Assembly: GCA_018830295.1 (NCBI GenBank)
Contig: JAHJSM010000002.1
Span: 115,131 to 179,130 of the forward strand
Source of the DNA: Patescibacteria group bacterium
GTDB taxonomy: Bacteria; Patescibacteriota; Minisyncoccia; Portnoybacterales; UBA2143
Length of the DNA: 64,000 bases
Direction: 5' to 3'
The first letter of the stretch is position 1. The number at the start of each line of letters is the position of its first letter. The notes under the pieces are model-generated. The model saw only the letters and a list, made by a program, of their open reading frames with translations. It was not told where the DNA came from and ran no database searches. Positions 2,269 through 58,462 of the stretch are shown one piece after another. The position numbers were made by a program, and so were the translations under genes.

Positions 2269-3690
2269 ATGCCACATAAACAAAAAATTAGGGTAAGAAT
2301 CGCGCCTAGTCCGACGGGGACTTTGCATCTTGGGACGGCGCGAACGGCGCTTTTTAATTATCTTTTCGCTAAAAAAAATGGCGGCGATTTTATTTTGCGG
2401 ATTGAAGATACTGATTTGGCGCGTTCGGACAGGAAATACGAAAAAGATATTTTGGAAAATTTAGAATGGCTTGGCTTAAAGTGGGATGAGGAACCTTGTC
2501 GGCAAAGCGAGCGGAAGGAAATTTATCAGAAATATATTAAAAAACTTTTTGATTCGGGCCAGGTGTTTTGGTGCGGTTGTAGCAAAGAGGAGTTAGAGGA
2601 AGAAAAGAAAGGGCAGATGGAGAGAAAAGAATCGCCACGGCATACCTGCCAGAAAAAAACAAAAGAGGGGGAGGGGATTATCAGATTTCATTGTCCAGAT
2701 AAGAAAATCTTTTTTGACGATATGATTAAGGGTCGGGTGGAGTTTGATTGCGGTTTGCTGGGAGATATCGGCATCGCGCGGGACGAGAAAACGCCCTTGT
2801 ATAATTTGGCGGTTGTGATTGATGATATTGAAATGAAGATTAGCCATGTTATCAGAGGCGAAGACCATATTTCCAATACCCCAAAACAGATGCTCCTTCT
2901 TGAAGCGTTCGGGGCTATTCCTCCGCGATACGCCCATATTCCTTTGACGATGGGACCGGACAAAGCCAAGTTGAGCAAGAGGCATGGCGCGACCGCAATT
3001 GAGGATTACAAAAAAATGGGATATTTGCCGAAAGCGCTCACGAATTTTATGGCTTTTCTTGGCTGGCATCCGGGAAGCGAAAAAGAGATTTTTTCTTTAG
3101 AAGAATTGGCGCGAGAATTTTCAATGGAGAAAATGAACAAATCAAACGCCATTTTTGATATTGAAAAATTGAATTGGTTCAACGGGCAATATATCCGCCA
3201 AATGGATTTGGATGAGTTGACTAAAAAATGCTTGCCGTATTTAAAAGAAGCGGGGTTAATTCGGGGGCTGCCCCCGTTGCGGGGGCAGCCCCCATCGTAT
3301 CTTAAAAAGGTGATTGCTTTGGAGCGCGAGCGGCTGAAGAAGTTATCGGAGATAGGGGAGTTGACGGAATTTTTCTTTTTGGACAAATTAGATTACGCGC
3401 CAGAATTGCTGATTTGGAAGAAATTGTCTTTAAAAGAGGTGAAAAATAATTTAGAAATTTTGGAAAAAGTTCTTTCAAAAACAGACAAATTTGACCAAAA
3501 ATCGCTCCAGGATACAATCACTCCCTTAACCGAAAAATACGGCGTAGGCGACCTCCTGTGGCCTCTGCGGGTGGCGATTACGGGCAGAAAAGCATCCCCA
3601 GGGCCTTATGAAGTAATGGAGGTTTTGGGGAAGGAGAGGGTGTTGGAAAGGATAAAAGAGGCGATTGAGAAGATAAAAGAATATGTCTAA
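2269..3690 (+). CDS. gltX: glutamyl-tRNA synthetase; contains an in-frame GC-rich palindromic repeat at 3263-3293
   Basis: HIGH-class motif PSPTGTLHLGTAR and KMSKS-like KLSKRHG; class I Glu/Gln-RS architecture. Confidence 0.9.
   Translation: MPHKQKIRVRIAPSPTGTLHLGTARTALFNYLFAKKNGGDFILRIEDTDLARSDRKYEKDILENLEWLGLKWDEEPCRQSERKEIYQKYIKKLFDSGQVFWCGCSKEELEEEKKGQMERKESPRHTCQKKTKEGEGIIRFHCPDKKIFFDDMIKGRVEFDCGLLGDIGIARDEKTPLYNLAVVIDDIEMKISHVIRGEDHISNTPKQMLLLEAFGAIPPRYAHIPLTMGPDKAKLSKRHGATAIEDYKKMGYLPKALTNFMAFLGWHPGSEKEIFSLEELAREFSMEKMNKSNAIFDIEKLNWFNGQYIRQMDLDELTKKCLPYLKEAGLIRGLPPLRGQPPSYLKKVIALERERLKKLSEIGELTEFFFLDKLDYAPELLIWKKLSLKEVKNNLEILEKVLSKTDKFDQKSLQDTITPLTEKYGVGDLLWPLRVAITGRKASPGPYEVMEVLGKERVLERIKEAIEKIKEYV
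3263..3293. repeat. GC-rich palindromic element GGGGGCTGCCCCC-GTTGC-GGGGGCAGCCCCC (inside gltX, in frame)
   Basis: 13-bp perfect inverted arms; same element, inverted loop, at 63238-63268. Confidence 0.8.
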
Positions 3691-13776: not shown

Positions 13777-13811
13777 GGGGACAGTCCCCATTCAGAATGG
13801 GGACTGTCCCC
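13777..13811. repeat. GC-rich palindromic element GGGGACAGTCCCC-N9-GGGGACTGTCCCC (intergenic)
   Basis: member of a family with 10 or more copies. Confidence 0.8.
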
Positions 13812-13831
13812 TAATTTTGTCCCCTAATTTC

Positions 13832-14857
13832 TCATTCAAACCACTTCTCCATTTCCTTCGCGCTTGTTTTTTTCTTCTTCATAATAATTTTTCTTTTTCG
13901 CCAGGCGTTGGGGGTTAGTTTAAATAGTTCTTTCATCGCTTTCCATGTATATTTTTCAAAAAGCAGGACATAGACCCAGGAAATAATTTCTTTTGGCAAA
14001 AACCAGGGCAGATGTTTAATGAGCAATAACGGCTGTTCGTTTTTTAATTGCATTAATCGTTGATTTTTAAAAGCGTGGAATTTGCCAAACTTGTTGATTT
14101 TCAGCCGTTCTCTCACGATTGATAAATAACCTTTCGCCGCGCTATCGCCCGCTGTTCGCGCGTGCCAAGCGACTGACTTGGGCTGATAAATTGCTTTCCA
14201 TCCGCGCAATCGCAGCCGCCAGGCGAGATCAACATCCTCTTTATAACAAAAAAAATCTTCGTCAAAATATTCTTCTTTGATTTTAACATCCTCCAGCGCC
14301 TCTCTTCTGTAAACAGGCGCCGCTCCGTCCGCGCCGAATATTTCTTCACGATTCTCAAATTGCCCCTGGTCAATCTGTCCTTGTTCTCTGTTAATAATTC
14401 GCCTGTTTTTAAAAATGACCAAACCAGTCGTATCAATAATAGTCGACAGACCTAAATTCCAGCGCAAAAGTTTTCCCTGAACGGACGCTATTTTGCGGTC
14501 TTTCTTAAAAATTTCCACAGCCTCTCGAACGAATCCGTTCTCTAAAATAACATCTTGGTTGAGGCATAAAACAAATTCTCCTCCGCTCTTTCTTATACCT
14601 TGATTATGTCCAGCCGCGAAACCAACATTTTTTTTATTAAAAACAATTTTGAGGTTTTGCCTTTTTGGTAATTTCTTTAAATATTCAACCGTTCCGTCCG
14701 TTGAAGCGTTATCAATAATCAAAATTTCCAGTTCCGGGTAGGCCTGGCTAAAAACAGAATTCAAACAACTCTTAATATATTTTTCAGCGTTGTAAGTTAG
14801 AAGATTGATTGAGACCACCGGAAGATTTTTTTGCATAAGCCGCGTATAAAAGACCAA
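13832..14857 (-). CDS. family 2 glycosyltransferase (second copy; 5' end may start at an internal Met)
   Basis: VSINLLTYNAEKYI...ILIIDNASTDGT GT2 signature. Confidence 0.85.
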   Translation of the reverse strand: MVFYTRLMQKNLPVVSINLLTYNAEKYIKSCLNSVFSQAYPELEILIIDNASTDGTVEYLKKLPKRQNLKIVFNKKNVGFAAGHNQGIRKSGGEFVLCLNQDVILENGFVREAVEIFKKDRKIASVQGKLLRWNLGLSTIIDTTGLVIFKNRRIINREQGQIDQGQFENREEIFGADGAAPVYRREALEDVKIKEEYFDEDFFCYKEDVDLAWRLRLRGWKAIYQPKSVAWHARTAGDSAAKGYLSIVRERLKINKFGKFHAFKNQRLMQLKNEQPLLLIKHLPWFLPKEIISWVYVLLFEKYTWKAMKELFKLTPNAWRKRKIIMKKKKTSAKEMEKWFE

Positions 14858-24008: not shown

Positions 24009-25010
24009 TTACACTGCCAATCCTGAATCCTTTTCCTCGCCTAATTCGCTCAATCTTAATTGACGTATTTTTTGATTATACTTTTCTAAAATTAATTTTT
24101 CGGGCGAGACCGGATGAAATTCCAACTGCTCATCATTAAAAAACACCCTGCCTCCTTTTTGATTAGTCAGGGGATCTTTTTTAATCCGCCCTTCTTGAAA
24201 TCTCTTCAAGAGTAATTCTAACTTATCACCTACCTTATTGTCAAGAATTGATTCAATCGCTTTTCTAAAAAAACCCAATAAATAACTCGTTTTTACGCTT
24301 CTTAAATATCCCTTCTTGGCAAGCGGATAAAAAAGTAAATAGTCCCCGACCCAAGAATTTTCTTCCTGAAACTTGCGATACAAGAAAGGCGGTTTTTCCT
24401 CCCAGATAGGCGTCAAGCGCGCGTAGGTCTGGGCATTATACAAACTTTGAAAAGGAATTTTGAGCGATTTATCGGTTAAGTAATGATTGAGGCAAAACCG
24501 ATTTTTGGTCAAATTATTATGCCGCCTCTGCCCGATTAAATGGATAAACAAAGTCGTCAGCCCTCGACAAGTCCAGATTCTGCCAAACTTGGAAACAATC
24601 AAAAGGTCTATATCTGATTTGTCTTTCGTATTGTTCATCGCCAAAGAGCCACTTACCATAATTAATTTAATAAAAGGAATTAATTGCAAGAAATAGATAA
24701 CGCGTCGCGCCTTCTTCCACTTCTTATCCGCTATTTTCTGCCTTTCAATTCTTTCCTCAACAATCCCCTCTCGCCCGCGGAGAAAATAAAGCCCGTTTTT
24801 CTCGCCAATCGCTTTTTTTAATTCTCGGCTATTTTCCAACGCATTACAAAACGGGGACAAAAAAGATGGGGACAGTCCCCCGTCTTCGGGGGCTGCCCCC
24901 ATCTTCTGACAATTTATCCCATATCTAAAAATCTCCCAACCATTAAGCGGTCTGTCTAAAACATCATAATAAACAAGAGTCGCCAAAACTGACTTTTCTA
25001 AATGGGTCAT
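24009..25010 (-). CDS. hypothetical protein with minimal nucleotidyltransferase (Pol-beta-like) motif; carries in-frame GC-palindrome at 24864-24903
   Basis: GS-X9-SDIDLLIV motif; otherwise unrecognised. Confidence 0.4.
   Translation of the reverse strand: MTHLEKSVLATLVYYDVLDRPLNGWEIFRYGINCQKMGAAPEDGGLSPSFLSPFCNALENSRELKKAIGEKNGLYFLRGREGIVEERIERQKIADKKWKKARRVIYFLQLIPFIKLIMVSGSLAMNNTKDKSDIDLLIVSKFGRIWTCRGLTTLFIHLIGQRRHNNLTKNRFCLNHYLTDKSLKIPFQSLYNAQTYARLTPIWEEKPPFLYRKFQEENSWVGDYLLFYPLAKKGYLRSVKTSYLLGFFRKAIESILDNKVGDKLELLLKRFQEGRIKKDPLTNQKGGRVFFNDEQLEFHPVSPEKLILEKYNQKIRQLRLSELGEEKDSGLAV
24864..24903. repeat. GC-rich palindromic element (GGGGACAGTCCCCC-GTCTTC-GGGGGCTGCCCCC) inside CDS 24009-25010, in frame
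   Basis: family member. Confidence 0.75.
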
Positions 25011-41394: not shown

Positions 41395-42361
41395 TCACAA
41401 AACAATATCCTCAAGCCCGTCTTTGATTAATTTAACAAGTTTACGAATTTGCTTCTCGTTTTTTACAGTTTTAGGAAAATCTTTCAATCGCTTAATAATC
41501 TCTGTTGACGATAACAATTTGGCCCAACCTTCCATTCCGAAAGCGATCCAACCACCCGACGGGTTAATCTCTACTAATCCTATTAACTTTGGTCTTGGAC
41601 CAGTTGAATGTAAATATTCCAACCCGATTGACTTGCTTCTATACCTAATCCTGACATTATTATTCCCCTGCGATATTTTATAAAATTCATCTTTAGCCAA
41701 CATCAAAGCGTTATAAACTTCCTCCGGATAATTATTTGCCAATTCCGTAAAATCATCATCCGTGATTTTAACCGTTTTAATACTTGTCTTAAAATCTTCG
41801 CATTTCTTTAAAAACTCCTTTCGCGCTTCTTTTATATTCTTATTCTTAGACAATAACGCCATAACGGCCTTATTCAATTCTCCAGCGCCGCTCGATAAAC
41901 TATCCTTGCTGACTAATAAATATAATTTAGATAAAATATTTTTGCCGTTTTTGCCCAACAAATCATTCAAATTAAATTCCATTATCGGCTCAACTTCATT
42001 CAGATTATCTAAATTCCCCAAAGAAGAATACAAAGCCGTATGCTGTCCTGATGTGATTATTATAAAGGGCGTTTTAATCTTAAAAGTATACTCCAAGCAT
42101 TGGTTTAGATGTCTTTTGATTTGTTCTTCCCACGCTTTAGTTTCCACGATCAAGATTGGTTTGAATTTCTCATCAATGACCACTATATCAGCGCTAAGCC
42201 GCTCAAAATCTAAATGCCGAACAATGTCATATCCCAAAAATTGAAGCAAGGGCAATACTATCTTAATCTTTACATTCTCCTCCGACCCCCTCCTCCCGGC
42301 AACAATATCCCTACTCGGCTCAATTGATTTTATGATTTTAAGAAATTCAGATTTTTTCATT
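41395..42361 (-). CDS. HsdR_N-like PD-(D/E)XK restriction-endonuclease-fold protein
   Basis: DIVVIDEKFKPILIVETKAWEE...QCLEY motif typical of type I R-subunit N-terminal nuclease domain; possible N-terminal extension to 42444 through a hairpin element. Confidence 0.5.
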
Positions 42362-42408
42362 TTTTGTATTATACCAAAAAACCACCCTCTTGGCGATTCC
42401 TCCCCTAA

Positions 42409-42444
42409 GGGGACAGTCCCCGCGGCAGGGACTGTCCCCGTCAT
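42409..42444. repeat. GC-rich palindromic element with embedded ATG (minus strand ACTATGACGGGGACAGTCCC...)
   Basis: family member; encodes MTGTVPAAGTVP when read on minus strand. Confidence 0.75.
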
Positions 42445-42465
42445 AGTAAATCCCCTCCAAATCTT

Positions 42466-42699
42466 TTACTCCCCCTTATCCTCCCTAAACCTATTCCTAA
42501 GATATTCCTTTTCTAATTTCAAAGATTTGATTTTAATCTCAAATAACTCTTTTTCCTTCTTAATCTCATCATCTATTAAACTCAATCTACCCATAGTTTC
42601 TAAAAACTCATCCTGCTTCATAGGCCTTATCCCCCTCGGTCTCATTCTCTTAACCCTCTTTTGAACTTCTTTTTTATTTGTTTTTTTATTTTTTGTCAT
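42466..42699 (-). CDS. small basic coiled-coil protein, full-length member of the repeated 3'-fragment family
   Basis: 77 aa ending …IKSLKLEKEYLRNRFREDKGE as in repeat copies. Confidence 0.4.
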   Translation of the reverse strand: MTKNKKTNKKEVQKRVKRMRPRGIRPMKQDEFLETMGRLSLIDDEIKKEKELFEIKIKSLKLEKEYLRNRFREDKGE

Positions 42700-42775
42700 G
42701 GTTTTGTTTATTAATCAATTTCTTTAATTCTTCAAATTGCTTATCCCCTTTTATGGTCTTCTGTCAAAAAAATAT

Positions 42776-43327
42776 TTAATCATAACAAACACCAGGATTT
42801 CTTTCTGCCGGCGTTTTCCAATCTATCCCATATTTATCTTTTAAGATTCGTTTTTGTTCATCCCAAAACAGATGACAATATCCTAATGTCTTTCGCGTGA
42901 AAATAAGATTTCTTTCTGCTTCTTTAGCCGCCTTTTTAATAATAATTTTTATTTCTGGGTCATTTTCTTGAGGGTTATAACTCTGTAAAATTTCCATATA
43001 AAAATGCTCTGCCCATTCTTTGGCTGTTTTAAAATCAGACGCCCTTACGCTGTTTTTATAAACATCGTTATTGTATTTTAATTTATAATTTATTTTGACC
43101 CATTTATCCGCATTCACGCTCATATCTGTAATTTCCACGCCCTCAACTCGCTTTAGGCATTCCTTATCCATCCTGCCAAGATTTTCTTTCAGGACAATAT
43201 CAAACTCTCTGTAAATTTCTTCTTTAGCAAAAGGCCATTCAGCGCTAAAAATCCCCGATTGTCCATCCTCGGCAATTTCCCGCTCGCCCGCCTTAAAAAA
43301 GTTTTTAATAAATTTTACAAATTTCAT
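42776..43327 (-). CDS. hypothetical protein
   Basis: ORF only. Confidence 0.35.
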   Translation of the reverse strand: MKFVKFIKNFFKAGEREIAEDGQSGIFSAEWPFAKEEIYREFDIVLKENLGRMDKECLKRVEGVEITDMSVNADKWVKINYKLKYNNDVYKNSVRASDFKTAKEWAEHFYMEILQSYNPQENDPEIKIIIKKAAKEAERNLIFTRKTLGYCHLFWDEQKRILKDKYGIDWKTPAERNPGVCYD

Positions 43328-43415
43328 AATTACTCATCAAAAATTAAACTTTTAATATATTTATCCCAACCGCCGCCTCCGTATAGATTTTAGCGCCTTT
43401 CCTCCTTTTTCTTAA

Positions 43416-43898
43416 CTAAGGCATAAAGTCGCGAAACCATTTCCTGATTCTTTCGCTCCTAGACGGAATTATTTTCTCAATAGACGCGAAATTTTCTTTT
43501 TCGTAAATGTCAAAAACCTTAAAAGCAATTTTTTTTAAATAGTTCTTAAAATATTCTCTGTCATTCTCGCATTTCATTTTGTTAATAAGATTTGATAAAT
43601 ATTCTTTCTCCTTGCCATGCTCTGAATCACACTCCATAGAATCAAATGTTTGAAAAATAAGGGATTGAATATGATCGCTCATTGAGCCCACATACCAAGC
43701 GCCCGGAAAATATCTCCCAAATTGCATTTTATGCACTTTCATTGACCCTGCAAGCATATCTATAAAATTAAGATGTTCGCTAATGTCTTCTTTAATCTCT
43801 ATACCACACTTAGGACATTTTATCCCTTTTTTATAGGGAACAAAGATAGCCCCGCATTGAGAACACTTAAAATTAGGTTTTTTAATATGGAGAGTCAT
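43416..43898 (-). CDS. hypothetical protein with N-terminal zinc ribbon (CSQCG...CPKCG)
   Basis: two CxxC pairs. Confidence 0.35.
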   Translation of the reverse strand: MTLHIKKPNFKCSQCGAIFVPYKKGIKCPKCGIEIKEDISEHLNFIDMLAGSMKVHKMQFGRYFPGAWYVGSMSDHIQSLIFQTFDSMECDSEHGKEKEYLSNLINKMKCENDREYFKNYLKKIAFKVFDIYEKENFASIEKIIPSRSERIRKWFRDFMP

Positions 43899-43935
43899 GT
43901 TTTATAAAATACCTTCTGGCGGCATATGTTTTAAA

Positions 43936-44562
43936 TTATTTCAATCTTTTTACTATCCCCTCAAATTGCTCATCCCATTTTACGGTCGCGTGGGGACTTC
44001 TACCCAAATAAGAAGGATGATAAAATGAAATATCACGAAGCGAAGAATAATATATTTTAGACAATTCAACATTTAATTCCTTAAGATTTTTTCTGAAAAG
44101 CGTTTCAACATTACCACCCATTAAAACAACAATCTGTGGATTATAACATTCTATTTCTTCTTTTAAACATTTTCTAAAATTGTCGTTAGAATACCATTCT
44201 TCTTTAAATTTTTTAGGTTTAACCTTTGCTTTCCCTTCTCTTTTGACCATATCGGTTACATAAACTTTTCCCAAATTATGTTTCTTCAAAAAACACTGAA
44301 AACCAACATCAATAAATGTTGCGTTGTAATTCCCTAAATATCTCAAATGTTTTGATTGTGGTTTTAAAAAATAATCTGACGGCTTTTGCCCAATAAACAT
44401 TATCTTATATTTCTCCTTCTCTTCCGGTGGAATAAAATTTCCCGCCAGCCAATTGCCGCCATTTTTTTTGTTATATCTATCAAAAATCTCTTGTAATTTT
44501 TTGTCTAACATAAATTTTATCCCCAAATCCCCTACCCCACAAACCAACAACCTTCTATGCAT
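43936..44562 (-). CDS. possible uracil-DNA glycosylase superfamily protein
   Basis: IMFIGQKPS near N-terminus and FYHPSYLGRSP near C-terminus resemble UDG family 4/5 motifs; weak. Confidence 0.3.
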   Translation of the reverse strand: MHRRLLVCGVGDLGIKFMLDKKLQEIFDRYNKKNGGNWLAGNFIPPEEKEKYKIMFIGQKPSDYFLKPQSKHLRYLGNYNATFIDVGFQCFLKKHNLGKVYVTDMVKREGKAKVKPKKFKEEWYSNDNFRKCLKEEIECYNPQIVVLMGGNVETLFRKNLKELNVELSKIYYSSLRDISFYHPSYLGRSPHATVKWDEQFEGIVKRLK

Positions 44563-44700
44563 CCCTCTATCGGAAATATTATTTCTTCATCCAATTCTTC
44601 CAAAAACTTATCAAAACTTTCTCCCGACAATAGGAACGAACCCCAAAATAGAATCAAAACCGAGCAAAACACAACCAACAAAGACAAGGCGGCTATTCTT

Positions 44701-44991
44701 CTAATCGCTCCCAATGTTTGTTTGATTTTTTCTTTCATATTCTTTTCTAATTTCTTTTTCAAATTCATCTTTATCTTCATAATCAAGATTTACTTTAAGT
44801 TCAAATATTTTATACACAAACAAAATAATCCCAATTATCCCAGATAAATCTATTAAAAAATTTAAACTTATATTGTCCGTATAATGGAAGTTTCCGATCA
44901 GATTTAAGCGAGAAAAAGTAAATAAACCAAAAATAATTCCCCAAACCACAAATAAACTTTCAATAAATTTTTTAAAGTCTTTCATATTCAA
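44701..44991 (-). CDS. hypothetical small membrane protein
   Basis: two TM helices. Confidence 0.3.
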   Translation of the reverse strand: MNMKDFKKFIESLFVVWGIIFGLFTFSRLNLIGNFHYTDNISLNFLIDLSGIIGIILFVYKIFELKVNLDYEDKDEFEKEIRKEYERKNQTNIGSD

Positions 44992-45071
44992 ATTTCTTTT
45001 AAATCTTTTATTTATTCTACCAAAAAGGTTCCTCTCTTAGGGACAGTCCCTGCCATAGTTTTGTTTTTTAA

Positions 45072-46880
45072 TTAATAAACTGTCACTTTTTGGGTGCATT
45101 GATTATCATAATAATATTCATAATCCAAACCGCTAAAAAAATACCCGGGATAATAAGTCGCCTTAACACACCAAGACACCACTTTTTGAGTACAACTACT
45201 ATCCCAATAATTATCATAACCATCCCAATATCTGTCCGAATAATATGTGGAAAATCTGCACACTTTTGCCGTTTGAGAACATTGAGAATCATAATAATAT
45301 TCACCCCCGCTAATAAAATATCCCGAAGGGCTTGTAGATTTAGAACATCCCCTTACCATCAATTGAGAACAACTACTATCCCAATAAAAATCTGTTCCTG
45401 GGGGTTTAACATAGTATTGTTGAAAAGATAAACAGTAAATCTGATTATTGCATTGACTATCCGTATAAAAATTGACACCATCAGAATAGGCAGAAAAATC
45501 AGAAGAATATTCGCAAGGTTTTTCATATTGGGGATAAACATCAATAGTTTTGCCAGAAGGAATTCTTATTATAGTTGCGCGAGTATTGCGATAACTGTCA
45601 GGAATTTCGCCTCCAACAAAATCTTTGTTCGTGGTTTCAATATAATAATAACATCTACCATCAACTTCATAATATGTCCCCGAAACATCACAATTCATAT
45701 AGACACCCACCGCCATATGCCCTGGCAACAAAATAAGAACAGAACCATATCCCATTGCGTCAATAATAGAAGCTGTTAAATAACTGGTATCTTCGCAATC
45801 TCCATTTTTTTCAAAAAATGTCTCAATGGGATATTTAGGATATTCATCATAACCGGTAAAAATATCTTTTACATACGGCAAGTTTTGCACAAAAGATACG
45901 GCCAACCAAACCTCACTGATATTGCTCTTATCATTAGCGCCTTTTGAAATTTTCTCACTTATCTTTTTGATAAAGGGATCATCACTGGTAATATATTCTA
46001 AACTTTCAGGAGAGCTTCTTGGCTTTGCTTTATAATAATCATACCAATCTTCTTGAATTGACTCTATCCAATTCCAATCATAACCACCATAGTTCCAAGT
46101 GAATGTTTGAGGCATATTCCGCCCTCCGCCCGCAGGATGGGTGTCTTTATTGTCAACTATCCCATCACCATCAGAATCCGAATTTAAATCAGAGGTTCCT
46201 AATTTTAACTCTTCTCTGTATGTTAAACTGTCGCCATCTATGTCGGCATTCATTCTTTCTTCTTCAGCTTCGTTTTCTGATAATTCTTGTTCTTTTAATT
46301 TTCTCTCAAACTCTTCCTGTTTTGCTTTTACTTCGGCTCGACTCCTTTTAATTGCTTCCTGCCGAGTTTTTTCTTCTGCCTCATCTTTTGCTACTTCAGC
46401 TTCTCTTTTTGCCACTTCTGCTTCATCTCTTTTAGTAGTTTCTTCTTGAGCCACTTTATTCGCTCTCCCTTCTTTAATCTTACTTAAATCGGCTTCTTGG
46501 CTCAATTCTTCCATCTTAAAATTCTTCTCCCAAGAAATTTTATAAATTAAATTAGAAATATTATTGAAAACGGGCTTATCGGATAAATAACCAGCGAATT
46601 CTTTGCCAAGAGCGTAATCATAGAAAATAAAATTTAAAGCAACAACCCCGACAATAGACCAAATAACTATTTCTTTGGGAATATTCTTTTTAAATAATAA
46701 AAAAGACGCAGTTAAACTGCGCTTCCAATTAAACACTATCCCCTCTAAAACTTTTTTCTGTTTTTCGAGATATTTTTTCATGATAATTGATATCAACTCT
46801 ATTTTACATTTGGCTATTCTTGCTCTAAAAAATAAAGCCCGCTTTGAAAGCGGGCAAAAAAATATTTTCAATTTTACCAA
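45072..46880 (-). CDS. large surface protein: N-terminal TM, Glu/Ala/Lys coiled coil, Asp-rich Ca-binding-like repeats, transglutaminase-like core, C-terminal Cys-rich about 35-aa repeats
   Basis: NGDCEDTSYLTASIIDAMGYGSVLILLPGHMAVGV papain-fold core; repeated YYDSQC/YWDSSC modules. Confidence 0.5.
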   Translation of the reverse strand: MVKLKIFFCPLSKRALFFRARIAKCKIELISIIMKKYLEKQKKVLEGIVFNWKRSLTASFLLFKKNIPKEIVIWSIVGVVALNFIFYDYALGKEFAGYLSDKPVFNNISNLIYKISWEKNFKMEELSQEADLSKIKEGRANKVAQEETTKRDEAEVAKREAEVAKDEAEEKTRQEAIKRSRAEVKAKQEEFERKLKEQELSENEAEEERMNADIDGDSLTYREELKLGTSDLNSDSDGDGIVDNKDTHPAGGGRNMPQTFTWNYGGYDWNWIESIQEDWYDYYKAKPRSSPESLEYITSDDPFIKKISEKISKGANDKSNISEVWLAVSFVQNLPYVKDIFTGYDEYPKYPIETFFEKNGDCEDTSYLTASIIDAMGYGSVLILLPGHMAVGVYMNCDVSGTYYEVDGRCYYYIETTNKDFVGGEIPDSYRNTRATIIRIPSGKTIDVYPQYEKPCEYSSDFSAYSDGVNFYTDSQCNNQIYCLSFQQYYVKPPGTDFYWDSSCSQLMVRGCSKSTSPSGYFISGGEYYYDSQCSQTAKVCRFSTYYSDRYWDGYDNYWDSSCTQKVVSWCVKATYYPGYFFSGLDYEYYYDNQCTQKVTVY

Positions 46881-47218
46881 CCATATAAGCTTTTTCTATT
46901 GTTCCAAGTATATCCGTCCGAATAAGTCTTAAAATGACCCTGAACATATGTCCCCGTGCTTGGTTTATAGTAACTACTTTGCCATTTTAGCCCGCTGTTG
47001 TATGAAGGGTAACTTCTTGTAGAGTAAGAATTGCTATAAGAGGGAGTATAACTGTTATAACTTGAGTATGAAGGCGAACTCCGATAATAACTGCTGACAT
47101 ATGTCCCGTTGCTCTTATAATATCCGCTAACCCACCCGGCATGAGCAGGTGTAGAAAATAAAAATCCCAAGATCATAAAAAAGGCTACCGCTAACGCAAA
47201 TGATAATAATTTTTTCAT
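46874..47218 (-). CDS. secreted Ser/Tyr-rich low-complexity protein
   Basis: signal peptide then SY-rich repeats; TTGACA-N17-TAGCAT promoter upstream. Confidence 0.4.
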   Translation of the reverse strand: MKKLLSFALAVAFFMILGFLFSTPAHAGWVSGYYKSNGTYVSSYYRSSPSYSSYNSYTPSYSNSYSTRSYPSYNSGLKWQSSYYKPSTGTYVQGHFKTYSDGYTWNNRKSLYGW

Positions 47219-47307
47219 AAAGTTATAATTTACTTTTTACAATTTAATGCTAACAAAAACAATAATCTTTGTCAAAGCGAAAAAGATTCCTGACGGCTTT
47301 TTTCCAA

Positions 47308-47342
47308 GGGAACAGTCCCCCGTCCGCGGGGGCTGCCCCCGT
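47308..47342. repeat. GC-rich palindromic element (GGGAACAGTCCCCC-GTCCGC-GGGGGCTGCCCCC)
   Basis: family member. Confidence 0.75.
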
Positions 47343-47415
47343 CATCTCTTTCTTTGAAATATTATTTTAGTTTAAAAAAAATTCCCGACATCTTCAATTA
47401 AATTTAGTTTGTTGA

Positions 47416-47847
47416 TTATTTAATTCCCAAAAGAAAATAAAGAAGATAATTATATCCCGAATGGATAGCGATAGCCGTTAGAAGTCCTAAAACAGGTTTC
47501 TTTTTGTTAATGAAATAACAAAGAATTATAGCCGCTATTACATGGATTAGTATTGGATAAACCGAAACAGAAATTCCTTTGTTGATATATCGGACAATGG
47601 CTTCTAACACTCCCCAGCCAAGACCAAAGAAAAAACTATAAGAAACTTTTATTTTCCAAATTAAAATTGAAAAATATCTGCCTAATTCTTCATAGAGAGG
47701 AGAAAAAATGACAGGAAGCGCCAAAATAAAAAAATTATTTTCTATGCTGTTAAGTTTAATTGTAATTAAAACAAGAATTAAAAACAACAATCCGAAGCCG
47801 ATTATGCCCGCAAAAAAAGTGACTAAAATATTAATTAGGCGGATCAT
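47416..47847 (-). CDS. CPBP/Abi-like intramembrane protease-family membrane protein (start at Met 47847)
   Basis: 4-5 TM; PLYEELGRYF, ILIHVIAA, AIHSGYN motifs resemble the CPBP motif set. Confidence 0.4.
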   Translation of the reverse strand: MIRLINILVTFFAGIIGFGLLFLILVLITIKLNSIENNFFILALPVIFSPLYEELGRYFSILIWKIKVSYSFFFGLGWGVLEAIVRYINKGISVSVYPILIHVIAAIILCYFINKKKPVLGLLTAIAIHSGYNYLLYFLLGIK

Positions 47848-47850
47848 TGT

Positions 47851-47995
47851 GTCGCAGTGGTTTTTTACTGGCAAGCGGACAAACAAAAAAGGGCACCCGC
47901 TTACCGACAGCCCTTTCGGAACTGTCTACTGCCTTTCGGCAGCAACCACTGCGACATGATGATAAGACGGATGCCCGTCTTTATATCGCAGTGGA
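47851..47995 (-). ncRNA. structured 5' leader RNA (three-way junction with two GNRA hairpins, mutually exclusive closing helices) upstream of the CPBP gene
   Basis: 12-bp helix GTCGCAGTGGTT/AACCACTGCGAC; hairpins CUGCC-GAAA-GGCAG and GACAGUUCC-GAAA-GGGCUGUC (minus strand); third copy of TCGCAGTGG at 47987 allows alternative pairing. Confidence 0.45.
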
Positions 47996-48149
47996 TTTTT
48001 TACCATACCTTATAGACCAAACTATAAGGGTTAGGCAATCAAATTGTTATTTGTAGATTAGCATAAATCAGAAATTTTTGGAAGCATGCGAAAAGATTAA
48101 ATTAATTTGAAAAAGGTCATCAGGAACTTTTTTATCGTTAAAGCGGAAA

Positions 48150-48449
48150 TTATCCAATAAGTTTCTGAATGTCTTCTTGGCTAAACTCTTTTTTGTAATC
48201 AATTAATTTGGGATGACTAATGCTTCGCAATTCCGCGTCGTAGGTTGCCATGATGCTCCTTGCTCTTTTTTGGTAAACCATCCAGTTCCTCTGCGAGGCA
48301 AATTCATCAAACTTATTTAAGCCATCAAATCCATCGCCAAATTTGGCGAAGGCTATAAAAAAATCGAGATTTTCTGTAAAATCATATTTATCAATCCTGT
48401 CTTTTATCCAATTTGAAAAATCCCTGCCAACGCCGAGCCATTGATACAA
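48150..48449 (-). CDS. AntA/AntB-like antirepressor domain protein (phage-type)
   Basis: WLGVGRDFSNWIKDRIDKYDFTENLDF matches the AntA-domain pattern. Confidence 0.5.
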   Translation of the reverse strand: MYQWLGVGRDFSNWIKDRIDKYDFTENLDFFIAFAKFGDGFDGLNKFDEFASQRNWMVYQKRARSIMATYDAELRSISHPKLIDYKKEFSQEDIQKLIG

Positions 48450-48589
48450 TTCTCTGGCGTTAACAAATTTTTTTTCTCGCCATTAAAATCTTTTTGAATT
48501 ACTTTGATATTTATAAGGTCGTTCATTGTTTTGAATTATTTTTTTACATTATATCAAAAAACCGCCCAAAAGGCGATTTTTATATTTCC

Positions 48590-48750
48590 TAAAAAAGGTC
48601 AGGCCTTTCGAGTAGAGACATTTCTTAAGGTCTCGCTCAGAAGGTCTGACCTTTTTTCACCCCCTGTATTTCTCCCCAAACCCCCTCTAAATCTTTTATT
48701 CCCCCTTATCCTCCCTAAACCTATTCTTAAGATATTCCTTCTCTAATGCG
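48590..48750 (-). repeat. about 170 bp repeat copy 2 (3' ORF fragment plus terminator), interrupted by GC-rich palindrome at 48752-48790
   Basis: near-identical to 38815-38995. Confidence 0.7.
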
Positions 48751-48939
48751 CGCGCCCGAAGCCTGGCTTCGGGAGTGGGCTTCGAGAGTAAAAATATTTT
48801 GCATTTTATAATTTTATTTTCAAATCCCCTCCAAATCTTTTATTTATTTCCTAAAAAGGCTCCTGACGACTTTCTCTGATATTTCTCCACAAAAATAAGG
48901 ACAGAAGTTTATTTTCTGTCCTTAAATGATTGAATTTGT

Positions 48940-49380
48940 TCAAATCGTAATATCAGTCACATCGCCGTAAAGCAATAACAAATCTTTTGGATTGAATTTC
49001 ATCCCAGTAAATTCATCGCCACCTGCTCCTATAACATAAGGTTTTTCCATTAAATTAGCATCAATCACAACCTTGCACTTGTCAAAAAACGCGTATGGCG
49101 GAAGTCCTCCAATTTTAAAACCCGTTAGTTTTTCCACTTCTTCTGGTTTCGCGAAAGAAATTTTTGAGACATCAAAATATTTCTTTATCTTTTTAGTATC
49201 AATTTTTTTATCACCGCTAATTATTGCTGCCAAAAATTGATTTCCAGATTTTAATAAAATACTTTTAATTATAGAGGATGACTTTTCGGAAAGCGCCAAA
49301 GCGGCATTTTCGGTTTGAGCGCCGCTTTTTTTATGTCTTAATATTTTACATTTAGATTTGAATTTTTCTATATTGTTCAT
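48940..49380 (-). CDS. YbaK/ProX-like aminoacyl-tRNA deacylase-domain protein
   Basis: ILLKSGNQFLAAIISGDKKIDTKKIKK...PEEVEKLTGFKIGGLPPYAF pattern of the YbaK editing domain. Confidence 0.5.
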   Translation of the reverse strand: MNNIEKFKSKCKILRHKKSGAQTENAALALSEKSSSIIKSILLKSGNQFLAAIISGDKKIDTKKIKKYFDVSKISFAKPEEVEKLTGFKIGGLPPYAFFDKCKVVIDANLMEKPYVIGAGGDEFTGMKFNPKDLLLLYGDVTDITI

Positions 49381-49402
49381 AATACGCCCCTGTCGCGTTA
49401 AT

Positions 49403-49948
49403 TTACTTCTGATTATACCAACAAGTCGGATCGCTGTTAAGATAATCGCCTGTGTGATGCAATGCTGTCCCTCTACAACCATAGCATATTTGGCTATGTT
49501 TGCATATTTTACATTGCCCTTTTATCATATCCCGAATATTTCGTACATTCTGGAAAATAGATGAACCCTTGATAATTTCAGCAATCTTTTCTCTCGAAAT
49601 TATTCGCACTTGAACTTTTTGTTCTCCTAAAATTACAGATTTTACTAAACGGTGAAGACCATCAAGAATCAACCATCTTCCTTTATTCTTCATAATATCA
49701 ATAGGATGAGATAAATCAGCTTTCATTGTTCTTTTGTATTCTATTTTATATTTTTCAGGATGATTAATTACATCTTTTGGCTTTAATATATACCAAATAT
49801 TATTCTCATTCCAAAATGGAATATCAAAATGCCATTCCAACTCTTTAATATCCATTCGAGCAATAGGCACATCAAGCGCCCAAACCCTTCTTTCATCCCA
49901 ATCAAAATCAAAACCAACTTCTTCTATAATTTTTGGTATTTTTTCCAT
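49403..49948 (-). CDS. ParB/Srx-like nuclease domain protein with C-terminal Cys-rich tail
   Basis: WLILDGLHRL (DGxHR) motif; C-terminal CKICKH...CYGC. Confidence 0.45.
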   Translation of the reverse strand: MEKIPKIIEEVGFDFDWDERRVWALDVPIARMDIKELEWHFDIPFWNENNIWYILKPKDVINHPEKYKIEYKRTMKADLSHPIDIMKNKGRWLILDGLHRLVKSVILGEQKVQVRIISREKIAEIIKGSSIFQNVRNIRDMIKGQCKICKHSQICYGCRGTALHHTGDYLNSDPTCWYNQK

Positions 49949-50182
49949 ATCTCCAATCCCCCTCCAAATCTTTTATTTATTTTCTTAAAAGATTCCTGAC
50001 TATTTATATTATTATTTACAAGATTAAAAGATAATATAGCATATTATATTATTATTTATAACTCCCCCTCAAACGCCTTTTTCGGAACCGATTTTTTCAA
50101 TTTTTTTTTATTCCCCCTTATCCTCCTTAAACCTATTCTTAAGATATTCCTTCTCTAATTTCAAAGATTTTATTTCTATTTT

Positions 50183-50740
50183 TTATATATTTTTGGCTTT
50201 ATTCAATATATTACCGATCATCCAATACTTAAAACAACCAATATTCAAATAATCATATTTTTCCGAATTAAATAAATCAGAATAACCATTCTTTTTTATA
50301 TATTTACCAAAATCATCAAATGTTTTTTTATCATCATTAGATAAATTATCTCTTATAATATAATAATGTGGCACTTGCGGCATTGTTTTTGCAAATGTCC
50401 AAGCGCATCGATCTATAAAGTTTTCAATATATCTGATATATTCTTTAACTGATTTTGCCACCGTCTTTTCGTTTATGTTCCTTTCTTTACAATATGACAT
50501 TTTAAACCAATCTAATAATTTTTTATTACCGCGACTTGAATTACAACTTCCACAACAAATAACTACAGTAGAAGAATTATTCCAAGGAGGTAAATAGTTT
50601 AAATGTTCTATTGTTGCCCAATCCTTTCGACAACTATCATTACTGGGTTTAACCATTCTTTTATGACAATAAACACAAGTTTTGTCTCTTGATTTAATTT
50701 TATCTAATTCTGCATCTGGTATTCCGTATTTATTTTTCAT
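50183..50740 (-). CDS. HNH endonuclease
   Basis: CVYCHKRM...EHLNYLPPWNN...CCGSCNSSRGNK H-N-H zinc-finger motif. Confidence 0.6.
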   Translation of the reverse strand: MKNKYGIPDAELDKIKSRDKTCVYCHKRMVKPSNDSCRKDWATIEHLNYLPPWNNSSTVVICCGSCNSSRGNKKLLDWFKMSYCKERNINEKTVAKSVKEYIRYIENFIDRCAWTFAKTMPQVPHYYIIRDNLSNDDKKTFDDFGKYIKKNGYSDLFNSEKYDYLNIGCFKYWMIGNILNKAKNI

Positions 50741-50771
50741 AAATTATTTAAAATTCCTTTCAAATCTTTTT

Positions 50772-50816
50772 TTATCCCCAAGGGGACAGTCCCTGCGGCG
50801 GGGACTGTCCCCGTCA
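50772..50816. repeat. GC-rich palindromic element with embedded ATG (same MTGTVPAAGTVP reading)
   Basis: family member. Confidence 0.75.
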
Positions 50817-50863
50817 TAGTTCTGGTCGGCTTTCGGATAGCCGAATGGGTTTTTATTTATTCC

Positions 50864-51826
50864 CTAAAAAGATTCTTGATACCTTTCCTTTCGTCCTTGC
50901 CGATTAAGAACATTGACTATTTCTAGTATTTTACCAAACTGCTCTTCTTCATCCGAGTAGCAATAATTTAAAGAATATTCTGGTCTAATAAAATTATATT
51001 CAAGAACTTCTTTGTCGTTTAATCTTTTTCTCCTTAGATTTTTACCAGAAATAGGATAAACTGCTTCAATTAATACTTCGGGTGTTATTGGAAAATAATG
51101 TTTTCTCTCTAAAAAACTTACTCCATAAAAACTCTTTTTTTCTGGAAACCACTCAATTACTGGAGTGTCAGAAGTTATGAACCTGTATTTTCCTGTAACG
51201 ATGTAAACTCGCCAATTTTTGGCATAAATTAAATTAGCAAATCCCTCAACATCTTCAAAAAAATGTAGATGTTGAGCATTATTAAAGGTTAAACTATATT
51301 TTCCATCAATTATCATTTTTCTCATCTTCTTAATCTCTTTATCGCTTAAATTAATATTTTGTTTTTTAGCTAATTCTTTTGCCTTTTTAATGTAAATATC
51401 CTTATGCCCAGCATTTAAACCGTATAATTTCTTGGTCATATCTTCACTCATTCTATTCATTTGCTGTCTAAAATAATCGGTACGAATCCACATAATACTC
51501 ATTAAATAAGAGATATCATAACGTATATTATTACTAATATACTTATTGTCTTTTACTTGTTTACAAAAATAAGCAATAGCATTTACTGCTTTGTCTTCAA
51601 TGTTTTGCAAATAATCCTCTACTGCCTGACTCACATCATCTTGCTCTCCTGTTTTAACTCCATAAAAAAATTTCTCATAACAAACGCCACTATATGCTCT
51701 TTTTCTGCCTATCTTTTTATTTCTAATATCTAAAACAGACAATTTGCCATTATTGTCTGCAAACTGTTTTAAATAAAAACGAGGAACATAGTGCTGTTTT
51801 TTTGTAATCTGTTGTCTGTCTGGCAT
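50864..51826 (-). CDS. DUF4238 family protein
   Basis: N-terminal HYVPRFYLKQF signature. Confidence 0.55.
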   Translation of the reverse strand: MPDRQQITKKQHYVPRFYLKQFADNNGKLSVLDIRNKKIGRKRAYSGVCYEKFFYGVKTGEQDDVSQAVEDYLQNIEDKAVNAIAYFCKQVKDNKYISNNIRYDISYLMSIMWIRTDYFRQQMNRMSEDMTKKLYGLNAGHKDIYIKKAKELAKKQNINLSDKEIKKMRKMIIDGKYSLTFNNAQHLHFFEDVEGFANLIYAKNWRVYIVTGKYRFITSDTPVIEWFPEKKSFYGVSFLERKHYFPITPEVLIEAVYPISGKNLRRKRLNDKEVLEYNFIRPEYSLNYCYSDEEEQFGKILEIVNVLNRQGRKERYQESF

Positions 51827-51968
51827 ATACGACTTATTATGATTTTAATTTTTTATTTGTGTGTAAAAAGGCACCAAAGACAGATTAATTTTTTGTAATC
51901 CTCTTTTATTTTTAAAAAAGTTCCTGACGGCTTTTTACCTATTATATATGTCGCTCTAAAAAAATTTG

Positions 51969-52433
51969 CTAAAATTCTTTGTCAAATTGATTTTCCTTAC
52001 AATTAGTATACTCTCTATAAAAATAAGAGTATAATCCTGGAAAATCTTTGTTATATTCAGGTTTTAGCTCTTCACAATCAGTATCCTTCCATTCGCCCTT
52101 TGACGCTTTGTAGGTAATTCTACAAACATCATCTTTCTCAATATAGTTTTGGTGTAATACATTATTATAAGCCTCTCTTTCTTTTTCATATATTTCATAA
52201 CAATCTTTTTTTCTTTTAGCTATATACTCTTTATGTTCTTGTTCTGCCTTCACCTCTGATTCTTCCCTTTCTAATTCTAGCTCCTTCCTTTTTTCCTCTA
52301 ATTCTAATCTTTGTTGTCTTTCAATGGATTGTTGTTTATTATGCTGAACCCACACAAAACTTCCGCCTATTATCATTGCGGAAACTATAATTACAGCGGG
52401 ATAAACAAATTTATTTATATTTTTTATCTTCAT
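51969..52433 (-). CDS. hypothetical secreted coiled-coil protein
   Basis: signal/TM then charged repeats. Confidence 0.35.
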   Translation of the reverse strand: MKIKNINKFVYPAVIIVSAMIIGGSFVWVQHNKQQSIERQQRLELEEKRKELELEREESEVKAEQEHKEYIAKRKKDCYEIYEKEREAYNNVLHQNYIEKDDVCRITYKASKGEWKDTDCEELKPEYNKDFPGLYSYFYREYTNCKENQFDKEF

Positions 52434-52445
52434 ATTTAATTTTAA

Positions 52446-53825: not shown

Positions 53826-53830
53826 AAAGA

Positions 53831-54790: not shown

Positions 54791-54802
54791 AAATTATTAA
54801 AT

Positions 54803-57172: not shown

Positions 57173-57510
57173 AAAAGTTTTAGTTATATTTTTTTATTAT
57201 ATTTAAAGTTCCTCCCCCTCATATTACCCCAACCAAAAAAACAAATCAAACGAAAACCCGCTTGGGGGCGGGGTTATAACTCTTACCATTCGCAGACTCT
57301 TTTGTCGTTGTCTCCGTCTAAATGATGAATGTCATCGCCGGTTTTCTCTTAACGAGGTTCGACCTACGAGCGCGACCTTAAGAAATGTCGCTACTCTTAA
57401 TGTCAAACCTCTTTGCTTACCATCCTATCCCTCTCATTTTACAAACCTAACTGTCGGATATGTATCTGAACCTATACACCAAAAAACTGGCTGTTTCAAC
57501 GGAAAAATCT

Positions 57511-57541
57511 GGGGACAGTCCCCGCAGCAGGGACTGTCCCC
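57511..57541. repeat. GC-rich palindromic element GGGGACAGTCCCC-GCAGCA-GGGACTGTCCCC
   Basis: family member; about 65 bp including flanks duplicated at 59582-59646. Confidence 0.8.
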
Positions 57542-57709
57542 AGATTAAAATCAATAGCCACTTGACAAGGTTTCTATATTTGATATTCTATTATTAGGGC
57601 TGGCAATAATACCTTTTGAAGCGCTCGGGTGTTCTCTCCGCAGATGCGGAGATCATAAAGCTCGAGAGTCCGTTTCAAAAGACGCCGCTCTACAAAAGAT
57701 TCCGATAAT

Positions 57710-58412
57710 TTATCGGGATTTTTTGTTTGCCCAATAATCCTTAAAAAGTTCGTTAGACGCGATGATGCTGTTTCTAAGCATTGCGAAAAAATGCTCGCCG
57801 TTTTTTCTTTCATTGTGGTATCTAAAAAGAGCCCCGCAAATCCAATCTGCTATTTGTATATTAGGACTAGCGGAAGAATTTAACGCTTCAATTTGAATAA
57901 CCGCTTTTGCTGGCAATTTTGGCAACAAATCTAATTTTGTAATTTCATTAAATTTTGTTTGAGAAATTTTTTTCAGATGCCTTTCGTCTCGGAATACTCT
58001 GAATTCTAAGTCAGTAGTAGGCAAAAGAAGATGAAGGGTTTGAACAATAACTTCGGCATATAAATAGCCGCTATCCAAACTTTTCTTTTTTCGATATTCC
58101 AAGGGGATGTTGGACTTATTAAAAAAGGCGTAAAATACCCTGATGTCTTGTTCAGTAAAATATTCAAGCGTTTTTACGGAGGTTTTCATCTAATCCTGTG
58201 TCTGAAAACTTAACTTCTGTTTTATAGCGAAGTTTCTTTGGAAATTTTGTATGTTGCCATTTGCGAAAGGCCTTGGATGTTCTTTTGTGATTGTTTGTGA
58301 TAAATCCGCCCACGACAAAATTACGCTCTTTGTTCCCTGTAAAATTACCTGATTCATCAAGAAAGATAAACATATTCCCCCTAATTTTACCCCAACCAAC
58401 AAGACAAATCAA
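57710..58412 (-). pseudogene. DUF3800 family gene split by a frameshift (N-terminal piece 58164-58373, C-terminal piece 57710-58189)
   Basis: N-terminal FIFLDESGNF and C-terminal QIADWICGAL in separate overlapping frames; combined length about 229 aa. Confidence 0.5.
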
Positions 58413-58462
58413 TCAAAAAAACCCGCTTGGGGGGCGGGGTTAACCGAGTTTCCTAATTATAA

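Follow-up and report, generated by a model that had tools for sequence, protein, structure and literature searches.

A dispersed double-palindrome repeat lies in frame within the glutamyl-tRNA synthetase gene of a Patescibacteria genome

Palindromic repeats located in frame within protein-coding genes, tRNA synthetase genes included, are already known. The family described here is a new one of that kind; it was found in a 64,000-nucleotide stretch of a Patescibacteria genome (contig JAHJSM010000002.1, positions 115,131 to 179,130; this whole stretch is referred to as the window), where one copy forms a 33-nt insert in gltX, the gene for glutamyl-tRNA synthetase (GluRS). The Rickettsia palindromic elements (RPE), reportedly described by Ogata and colleagues in 2000 and treated again in PMC3733652, resemble it as dispersed palindromes of a small AT-rich genome with many in-frame copies in functional, often housekeeping genes, adding a peptide at permissive sites and having no associated transposase. 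RPE-1 type elements of Rickettsia are about 100–150 bp long. The present element is set apart by description, being 31–35 bp long, built of two self-complementary 13-mers and located in a Patescibacteria host. In both gltX and a nucleotidyltransferase gene of the window, the RPE pattern of an in-frame insertion, an intact product and orthologs lacking the segment is observed. The mobile GC clusters of yeast mitochondria and the byps of Magnusiomyces are said to be short GC-rich palindromes that spread in very AT-rich genomes and can lie in genes; the optional GC cluster in VAR1 is a coding-gene example. The likeness is that of a GC-rich palindrome spreading in an AT-rich genome, protein-coding genes included, whereas both are organellar, the byps are skipped by the ribosome and free of frame constraints, and the copies described here are in frame and stop-free.

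The GTAG and CGTC repetitive extragenic palindromes (REPs) are 20–40 bp palindromes, often dimers, located between unidirectional or convergent open reading frames (ORFs) near their 3' ends (Di Nocera et al. 2013, PMC3733652). A minority is intragenic and encodes 20–30 amino acids as dimers, with tRNA synthetase hosts in X. oryzae, E. litoralis and S. alaskensis, and the CGTC REPs have no dedicated transposase (PMC3733652). Their design consists of a CGTC tag, an 8–9 bp stem starting with A/T pairs, a 4–5 nt loop and a CCA tail (PMC3733652). GTAG REPs are marked by an unpaired GTAG at one end of the stem-loop and are mobilised by RAYT, an IS200/IS605-like Y1 transposase whose gene has REPs on its flanks. 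The present family has in common with REPs the size, the dispersal, the gene-end location and the intragenic minority, but its stems are 13–19 bp long and start with GGGG, there is no CCA tail and each arm is itself palindromic. Of the 18 arms in the window only 4 are followed by CGTC, as are 12 of 354 in other phyla (among the matches listed); none of the 18 is preceded by GTA or followed by TAC, and tagging of either kind was rejected. GTAG/CTAC does adjoin some Planctomycetota and Actinomycetes copies among the matches listed and is not among the common flanks. The small mobile sequences and miniature inverted-repeat transposable elements of enterobacteria reported by Delihas (PMC2759123, PMC2229807) are 100–170 bp long, with terminal inverted repeats, and lie between and within genes. 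They are similar in being small non-autonomous repeats, inter- and intragenic, that contribute peptide segments, and differ from the bare hairpin of about 31 bp seen here. A literature search found no paper on this family or on in-frame palindromes in Patescibacteria (candidate phyla radiation, CPR); exact 11-mers retrieved primers and unrelated papers.

The gltX gene and its insert are located as follows.

2269..3690, plus strand: gltX host gene (glutamyl-tRNA synthetase, 473 aa), Pfam tRNA-synt_1c and Anticodon_2
3262..3294, plus strand: copy 1, 33-nt in-frame insert in gltX, absent from most orthologs

The insert, cGGGGGCTGCCCCC-GTTGC-GGGGGCAGCCCCCa, keeps the frame of the host ORF and encodes RGLPPLRGQPP (residues 332–342 of GluRS) in the context LKEAGLI-RGLPPLRGQPP-SYLKKVIAL. 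The core is the 31 nt at 3263–3293, GGGGGCTGCCCCC GTTGC GGGGGCAGCCCCC; one flanking base on each side brings it to 33 nt. The bordering DNA is GGGTTAATT on the 5' side and TCGTATCTT on the 3' side. The predicted GluRS peptides across the insert are LIRGLPPLRGQPPSY and LIRGLPPLRGQPPSYLK, and the junction without it reads EAGLI-SYLKK. A repeat search returned the copy as an inverted repeat (I21) with 14-nt arms, 100% complementary, and a gap of 3 nt. The predicted RNA hairpin has −36.9 kcal/mol for 55 nt (z = −4.5), and no U-run is present in the sequence following 3294. The host ORF matches solved GluRS structures at E = 1e-104, with full Pfam coverage and intact HIGH-type (HLGT) and KMSKS-type (KLSKR) motifs; its closest matches are from Patescibacteria, Portnoybacteria among them. 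Sequence, ORF and Pfam bear out the statement of a preliminary note (the sequence-only reading) that a 31-bp palindrome lies in frame inside gltX and adds RGLPPLRGQPP. The same note had considered a GC hairpin in an essential gene unusual; the hairpin is present and very stable, but it is not peculiar to the two genes named there, as seven further copies are intergenic.

The window (37% GC) contains a family of nine such double palindromes, approximately one copy per 7 kb, of which seven are intergenic and two lie in frame within genes. Each consists of two self-complementary 13-mers, GGGG[G/A]C[A/T]G[C/T]CCCC, spaced by 5–9 nt. With up to two mismatches allowed, the 13-mer has 19 matches (both strands) compared to 0.34 expected, and 0 of 100 dinucleotide shuffles reach 19. 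Each 13-mer is palindromic around its centre base (G4-N5-C4; 6-1-6). The centres of the paired arms are complementary in all nine copies (seven copies have A in the first arm and T in the second, two have the reverse), and the whole element is therefore also a hairpin. All copies, 31–35 bp in size, fold at −27 to −39 kcal/mol. Two arm variants, G..C and A..T, coexist in the window, with copies 3 and 5 as hybrids. About 60 kb away from the 31-nt gltX copy, copy 9 repeats it exactly in reverse complement, with the loop GCAAC in place of GTTGC. Copies 4, 5 and 6 have the flanks CCAA...GTCAT in common with two copies in another Patescibacteria genome (L087), and copies 7 and 8 have approximately 35 nt of flank in common. 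Rfam gave no family for any copy (gathering thresholds over the whole window; E-value mode over 38–51 kb). The remaining copies, the second host gene and a single arm are listed here.

13777..13811, unstranded: copy 2, intergenic, GGGGACAGTCCCC-ATTCAGAAT-GGGGACTGTCCCC; begins 20 nt past the stop of the GT2 gene 13832..14857 (minus strand)
24009..25010, minus strand: second host gene, winged helix-turn-helix (wHTH) N-terminus and nucleotidyltransferase fold
24868..24900, minus strand: copy 3, A/T-G/C hybrid arms, in frame (GAAPEDGGLSP) in the wHTH-nucleotidyltransferase gene
42409..42439, unstranded: copy 4, intergenic, about 50 nt upstream of the likely true HSDR_N start (MKKSEF, 42360)
45038..45052, unstranded: single 13-mer-like arm TAGGGACAGTCCCTG, 20 nt beyond the stop of ORF 45072..46880 (minus strand)
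47308..47340, unstranded: copy 5, intergenic, hybrid arms; differs from the L087 copies by one first-arm base, flanks included
50782..50812, unstranded: copy 6, intergenic, 51 nt past the DUF4238 stop; flanks as in copies 4 and 5
57506..57546, minus strand: copy 7, intergenic, 19-bp stem and U-run, downstream of the DUF3800 gene
59616..59656, minus strand: copy 8, intergenic, 6 nt past the RadC stop, 19-bp stem and U-run
63238..63268, unstranded: copy 9, between convergent genes, loop GCAAC

The seven intergenic copies all lie between co-directional or convergent ORFs, 6–340 nt after a stop codon. ORFs make up 84% of the window, yet only two of the nine copies are inside them (P = 8e-5, random placement); coding insertions are therefore either avoided or disfavoured by selection. 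None of the six frames has a stop codon in the 13-mer arms or in the GC-rich loops. As palindromes of 20–40 bp that are dispersed and close to gene 3' ends, the nine copies are REP-like in the broad sense. They resemble terminators because they are GC hairpins, some with a U-run after the stem. A stem followed by a U-run is found in copies 7, 8 and 3 (UUUUUU) and not in the gltX copy or in copies 2, 4, 5, 6 and 9; the intergenic copies that have none sit just upstream of separate canonical terminators. In a terminator scan, copies 7 and 8 rank best in their region, and copy 7 is the top minus-strand site.

The second coding copy, in ORF 24009..25010, had also been pointed out by the sequence-only reading and holds on inspection. 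The element at 24868–24900 adds the peptide MGAAPEDGGLSPSFLSP, and conserved sequence is found on both sides of it; the element is preceded by the N-terminal sequence ILATLVYYDVLDRPLTGWEVFKYL, which is conserved in 120 homologs, so that copy 3 is genuinely in frame. The loop that contains it is hypervariable among these homologs, and the segment is absent or different in relatives. On the coding strand, copy 3 forms a 21-bp stem. A third candidate, ORF 41395..42444, was rejected, as its start is likely to be MKKSEF at 42360, downstream of the element; the mechanical ORF start at 42444 falls within the flank of copy 4. The flank ...CTATGAC beside the repeat supplies an ATG (window 42409–42444; L087:2715–2752 and L087:633–667), which accounts for false N-termini (MTGTVPAAGTVP..., MTGAAPADGGLSP) in mechanical ORFs and probably also in the output of gene callers. 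Such repeats thus yield false N-terminal extensions in gene calls. Beside two copies, short duplications are seen: a 13-nt tandem duplication, TGTCCCCTAATTT twice at 13806–13831, comprises the end of copy 2 plus flank, and an extra TGTCCCC adjoins copy 3 (24853–24858 region) in a similar way. These suggest slippage at hairpin edges.

At the insert site, an alignment of 120 GluRS homologs shows LPYL-EKK-V-DFDY-AKKIV in most close relatives, which lack the approximately 11 residues. The gltX copy is an insertion relative to orthologs, not an ancient conserved loop. L002 (80% amino acid identity) is empty at the DNA level. The 33 nt are found unchanged, at the same codon, in L004 and L005 (97%). 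L001 (82%) has GGGGACTGTCCCC-GCGACA-GGGACAGTCCCC with the same boundaries (ATC|CGG...CCA|AAATC), and L003 (79%) has a rearranged variant, GGACAGTCC-TTAAAATCTTTA-GGGACTGTCCC. One arm and the following AAATCT are common to L003 and L001, with the partner arm on opposite sides. The sequence-only reading had named relatives with the same residues and no palindromic DNA as the observation that would count against an insertion; the filled relatives carry palindromes and most relatives lack the residues. In a neighbour-joining tree of GluRS, the empty allele P0003 is nested among filled alleles, and the filled alleles share local flanks (LPYL...Y-LKK). A single insertion may have been converted or lost later, or a hot spot may have received insertions more than once.

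Four datasets contain the filled allele: the window, GCA_018899715.1, ERZ27247113 and the JGI metagenome contig Ga0180732. Because the filled junction recurs in datasets from at least two populations 3% apart, an assembly artefact is excluded, and the chimeric assembly considered by the sequence-only reading is not what produced the insert. In one assembly of the same organism the contig stops within the element, leaving a 337-aa partial protein (P0010); such repeats break assemblies.

Mapping on structure, which had been proposed as a check, places the insert in a low-confidence part of the model. The AlphaFold2 model (61 sequences) has a mean predicted local distance difference test score (pLDDT) of 91.4, and the only segment below 50 is formed by residues 334–339. 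In this model the insert is predicted to form the first inter-helix loop of the anticodon-binding domain, between helices 314–327 and 342–355. T. maritima GluRS (3AFH) has a loop at the same point that is only about 5 residues shorter. Other relatives have inserts of up to approximately 90 residues at this loop in the alignment. Peptides of the SLRGAEGDEAI type and the VIAS...PRNDK type are also found there.

A second insertion hot spot of GluRS is found after PRH[TI]C, aligned to residue ~128 of the window protein, which has no insert there. At this site L001 (581–2041) has a repeat of the GAGATTGC...CTCGCAATGAC type (peptide LPCRSAPRNDG), L003 (65–1495) has the double palindrome GGAAACCAAGTTTCC-ATT-GGAAACTCGGTTTCC, and L002 (3865–5325) has a 25-residue low-complexity insert. 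Palindromes at both GluRS loops fit permissive loops combined with abundant stop-free hairpin repeats.

We put the probability at roughly 80% that the 33 bp in gltX are a copy of a dispersed, REP/RPE-like, selfish palindromic family that persists in a length-tolerant loop; this reading joins what the sequences show: a family of repeats, an insert that orthologs lack, its position in a loop, the depletion of copies from coding DNA and a filled allele in several datasets. The normal home of the family would be the space between co-directional or convergent genes. Two copies would have landed in coding DNA and persisted because arms and GC-rich loops are stop-free, the length of the gltX insert (33 nt) is divisible by three and the protein loops that were hit vary freely in length among orthologs; the coding copies would be survivors of selection for being in frame, stop-free and in a tolerant loop. 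The gltX copy would be translated as a disordered 11-residue loop of Gly, Pro, Arg, Leu and Gln, most likely a neutral or nearly neutral passenger, and its peptide is probably functionless. Copies probably arise by transposition or by recombination-mediated copying. Slippage and recombination associated with the hairpin are suggested by a 9-nt indel at the edge of the insert in L004, the duplication at copy 2 and the opposite sides of the partner arm in L001 and L003. The sequence-only reading had proposed a mobile element tolerated in a surface loop. The nine-copy repeat, the mostly empty orthologs and the low-pLDDT loop agree with the tolerated element; it is dispersal that points to its mobility.

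Several observations weigh against this reading. No transposase, RAYT, Y1_Tnp or insertion sequence (IS) gene was found by Pfam among the window's 61 ORFs with 110 aa or more, where the sole recombinase-type match is an Xer-like integrase that relatives carry in synteny. Nor do the copies show an evident target-site duplication; for both reasons mobility is argued from dispersal. A scan of metagenomes gave no near-identical empty allele, a weak negative because the control scan retrieved only one filled contig and the lineage is rare in the collection. The gltX genes of the window and L004 are 97.0% identical with zero differences inside the 33-nt insert, while the differences in this region (3249–3315) cluster at the insert edges, which with 33 nt is not significant on its own: 3 substitutions on the 5' side, the 9-nt in-frame indel at the exact 3' edge and, over the following 20 nt or so, another 7 differences. 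Four changes separate the elements of L001 and L004, coordinated in such a way that all palindromes are preserved. Such changes would result from gene conversion, from insertion at the same site more than once or from selection for the hairpin, and the last of these would argue for some function.

By this reading, reduced AT-rich Patescibacteria (CPR) genomes carry a selfish REP/RPE-like repeat able to remodel surface loops of essential enzymes such as GluRS. Gly/Pro-rich low-complexity inserts of this sort can mislead alignments and structure predictions.

Related doublets are found well beyond this lineage. A cross-phylum scan for doublets of GGGGRCWGYCCCC, with one genome per species, gave at least 120 loci (L006–L125), and the counts are lower bounds. 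Among the matches listed, to which the doublet counts given next also refer, the hosts are Actinomycetes, Planctomycetota, Omnitrophota, Myxococcota, Coriobacteriia, Kuenenia and others. The pattern allowed 16 combinations, and an AC...GT core is found in both arms of 116 of 133 doublets. The centre base is the same in both arms of 97 of the 133 (73%), which suggests that the 13-mer is the unit. The arm spacing is 3–10 nt, and doublets of low-GC genomes often lie between an A-run and a T-run. In L120, at least 8 units follow one another in tandem with an 18-nt period. When viral contigs were scanned as a control, the AC/GT core was found at 1 locus and TC/GA at 13, several of which came from a single giant-virus bin, and neither CA/TG nor GC/GC gave any; because other cores occur, uniqueness of the AC/GT core cannot be claimed.

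Housekeeping genes of Omnitrophota, Planctomycetia and Saccharibacteria contain in-frame doublets of GGGGACWGTCCCC. In Omnitrophota (L014:4037–5377), three copies lie in one MiaB-like gene (UPF0004 and Radical_SAM; peptide KKMGTVPKRRGQSPFF), each with A-run and T-run flanks that are translated as KK...FF. In Planctomycetia (L028:5116–7839), one copy forms the linker between CbiA and GATase_3 of a CobQ fusion. In Saccharibacteria (L059:2559–5225 and L069:2–5896), the hosts are a class-I aminoacyl-tRNA synthetase (aaRS) and a giant PKD-domain protein, with one copy each. It is possible, although on balance doubtful, that these doublets form an undescribed cross-phylum class of mini-palindromes, made of the 13-mer GGGGAC[A/T]GTCCCC and its G/C variant. 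The class would be a portable 3'-UTR/terminator hairpin that has repeatedly invaded housekeeping ORFs in frame (Patescibacteria, Saccharibacteria, Omnitrophota, Planctomycetota), spread by some trans-acting factor or by templated copying of a single 13-mer. It has no GTAG/CGTC tag and no known transposase attached. The recurrence across phyla may reflect convergence or common origin; if it is not convergence, a very widespread and so far unrecognised way of generating or moving hairpins would exist in bacteria.

The alternative that survives best, although we regard it as unlikely, is that the gltX hairpin is a functional cis-element selected for pausing, attenuation or domain-wise folding, with the peptide as a by-product. 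The great stability of the hairpin is consistent with this, as are the palindromy kept through coordinated changes between relatives at 82% and 97% identity, the lack of substitutions in the insert between the window and L004 while neighbouring substitutions cluster, and the stem plus U6 of copy 3 in the other gene. However, the gltX sequence is that of a generic intergenic repeat, with an identical copy at 63238, and is absent from or different in close orthologs, an 80% relative being among the empty ones, which speaks against the transcriptional pause in gltX that the sequence-only reading had offered. The gltX copy is not followed by a U-run, and unrelated palindromes in the same loop of other lineages fit tolerance rather than a specific function. 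The coordinated changes are equally explained by gene conversion, as both arm variants coexist in the genome.

Quite improbable is a second alternative, in which a dimeric protein binds the 13-bp palindromes as double-stranded DNA, the pair of operators being spaced by about two helical turns, and the coding copies are accidental or regulatory. The 6-1-6 symmetry of each arm would suit such a site, and the arm centres in the window are about 18–22 bp apart. Hybrid copies keep the self-complementarity of the arms while the pairing between arms is imperfect, and the 97 of 133 listed doublets with the same centre base would give a long hairpin with a central mismatch. Against operators stand the variable spacing of the arms across the listed cross-phylum set, the location of the copies mostly at gene 3' ends and the three A-run/T-run-flanked copies within one MiaB-like gene; no candidate binding protein was identified.

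Still less probable is that the insert is not translated, either by ribosomal bypass as in the Magnusiomyces byps and T4 gene 60 or by removal from the mRNA. The hairpin is strong, and Lang and colleagues are said to have reported in 2014 that GC-rich mobile hairpins of AT-rich yeast mitochondria are bypassed. Bypass elements have matched take-off and landing codons, usually with a stop behind the take-off codon, and their length need not be a multiple of three. The insert, however, is 33 nt long, in frame and stop-free, and the codons that border it (ATT before, TCG after) do not match as take-off and landing codons; for these reasons membership of the bypass class was rejected. There is also no slippery site, and the suggestion of recoding made by the sequence-only reading finds no support. 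The ORF is likewise open across the gltX (5 loci), nucleotidyltransferase, MiaB-like (3 copies), CobQ, aaRS and PKD copies, a count that is partly by construction since detection required an open frame. The least probable alternative, an old lineage-specific GluRS loop or an assembly or chimera artefact instead of a repeat insertion, could appeal to the variable length of the loop across GluRS, including the slightly shorter one of T. maritima, and to the assembly that breaks exactly in the element, but it is practically dismissed by the identical DNA 60 kb away, the empty close relatives and the recurrence of the junction in several datasets, which come from at least two populations that differ by 3% at the nucleotide level.

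Five of the nine repeat copies lie in the region 41395–60382, which looks like a defence or accessory island. The genes of this region encode an HSDR_N protein, DUF4238, Methylase_S (type I specificity), an N6_Mtase/Eco57I-type methylase with an HSDR_N domain, DUF3800, RhuM and RadC, and several ORFs have no Pfam match. A 190-nt intergenic module occurs twice, at 38780–38975 and 48551–48745, with 93% identity; it has no Rfam match. The module consists of a minus-strand terminator with TATAA, a hairpin slot and the C-rich tract CCCCAAATCTTTTACTCCCCCTTATCCTCCCTAAACC. The slot is occupied by a different 67-nt hairpin (AAAAAAGGTYAGRCC...GGTCTGACCTTTTTT) at 38.8 and 48.6 kb and by the GGGGAC doublet at 42380–42500. 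Two matches are above the Rfam gathering score: a LOOT RNA at 47906–48037 (minus strand, 70.9 bits) and a DUF3800-V RNA at 57595–57692 (plus strand, 66.9 bits). The latter lies just past the stop of the DUF3800 gene 57710..58189 (minus strand), on the opposite strand.

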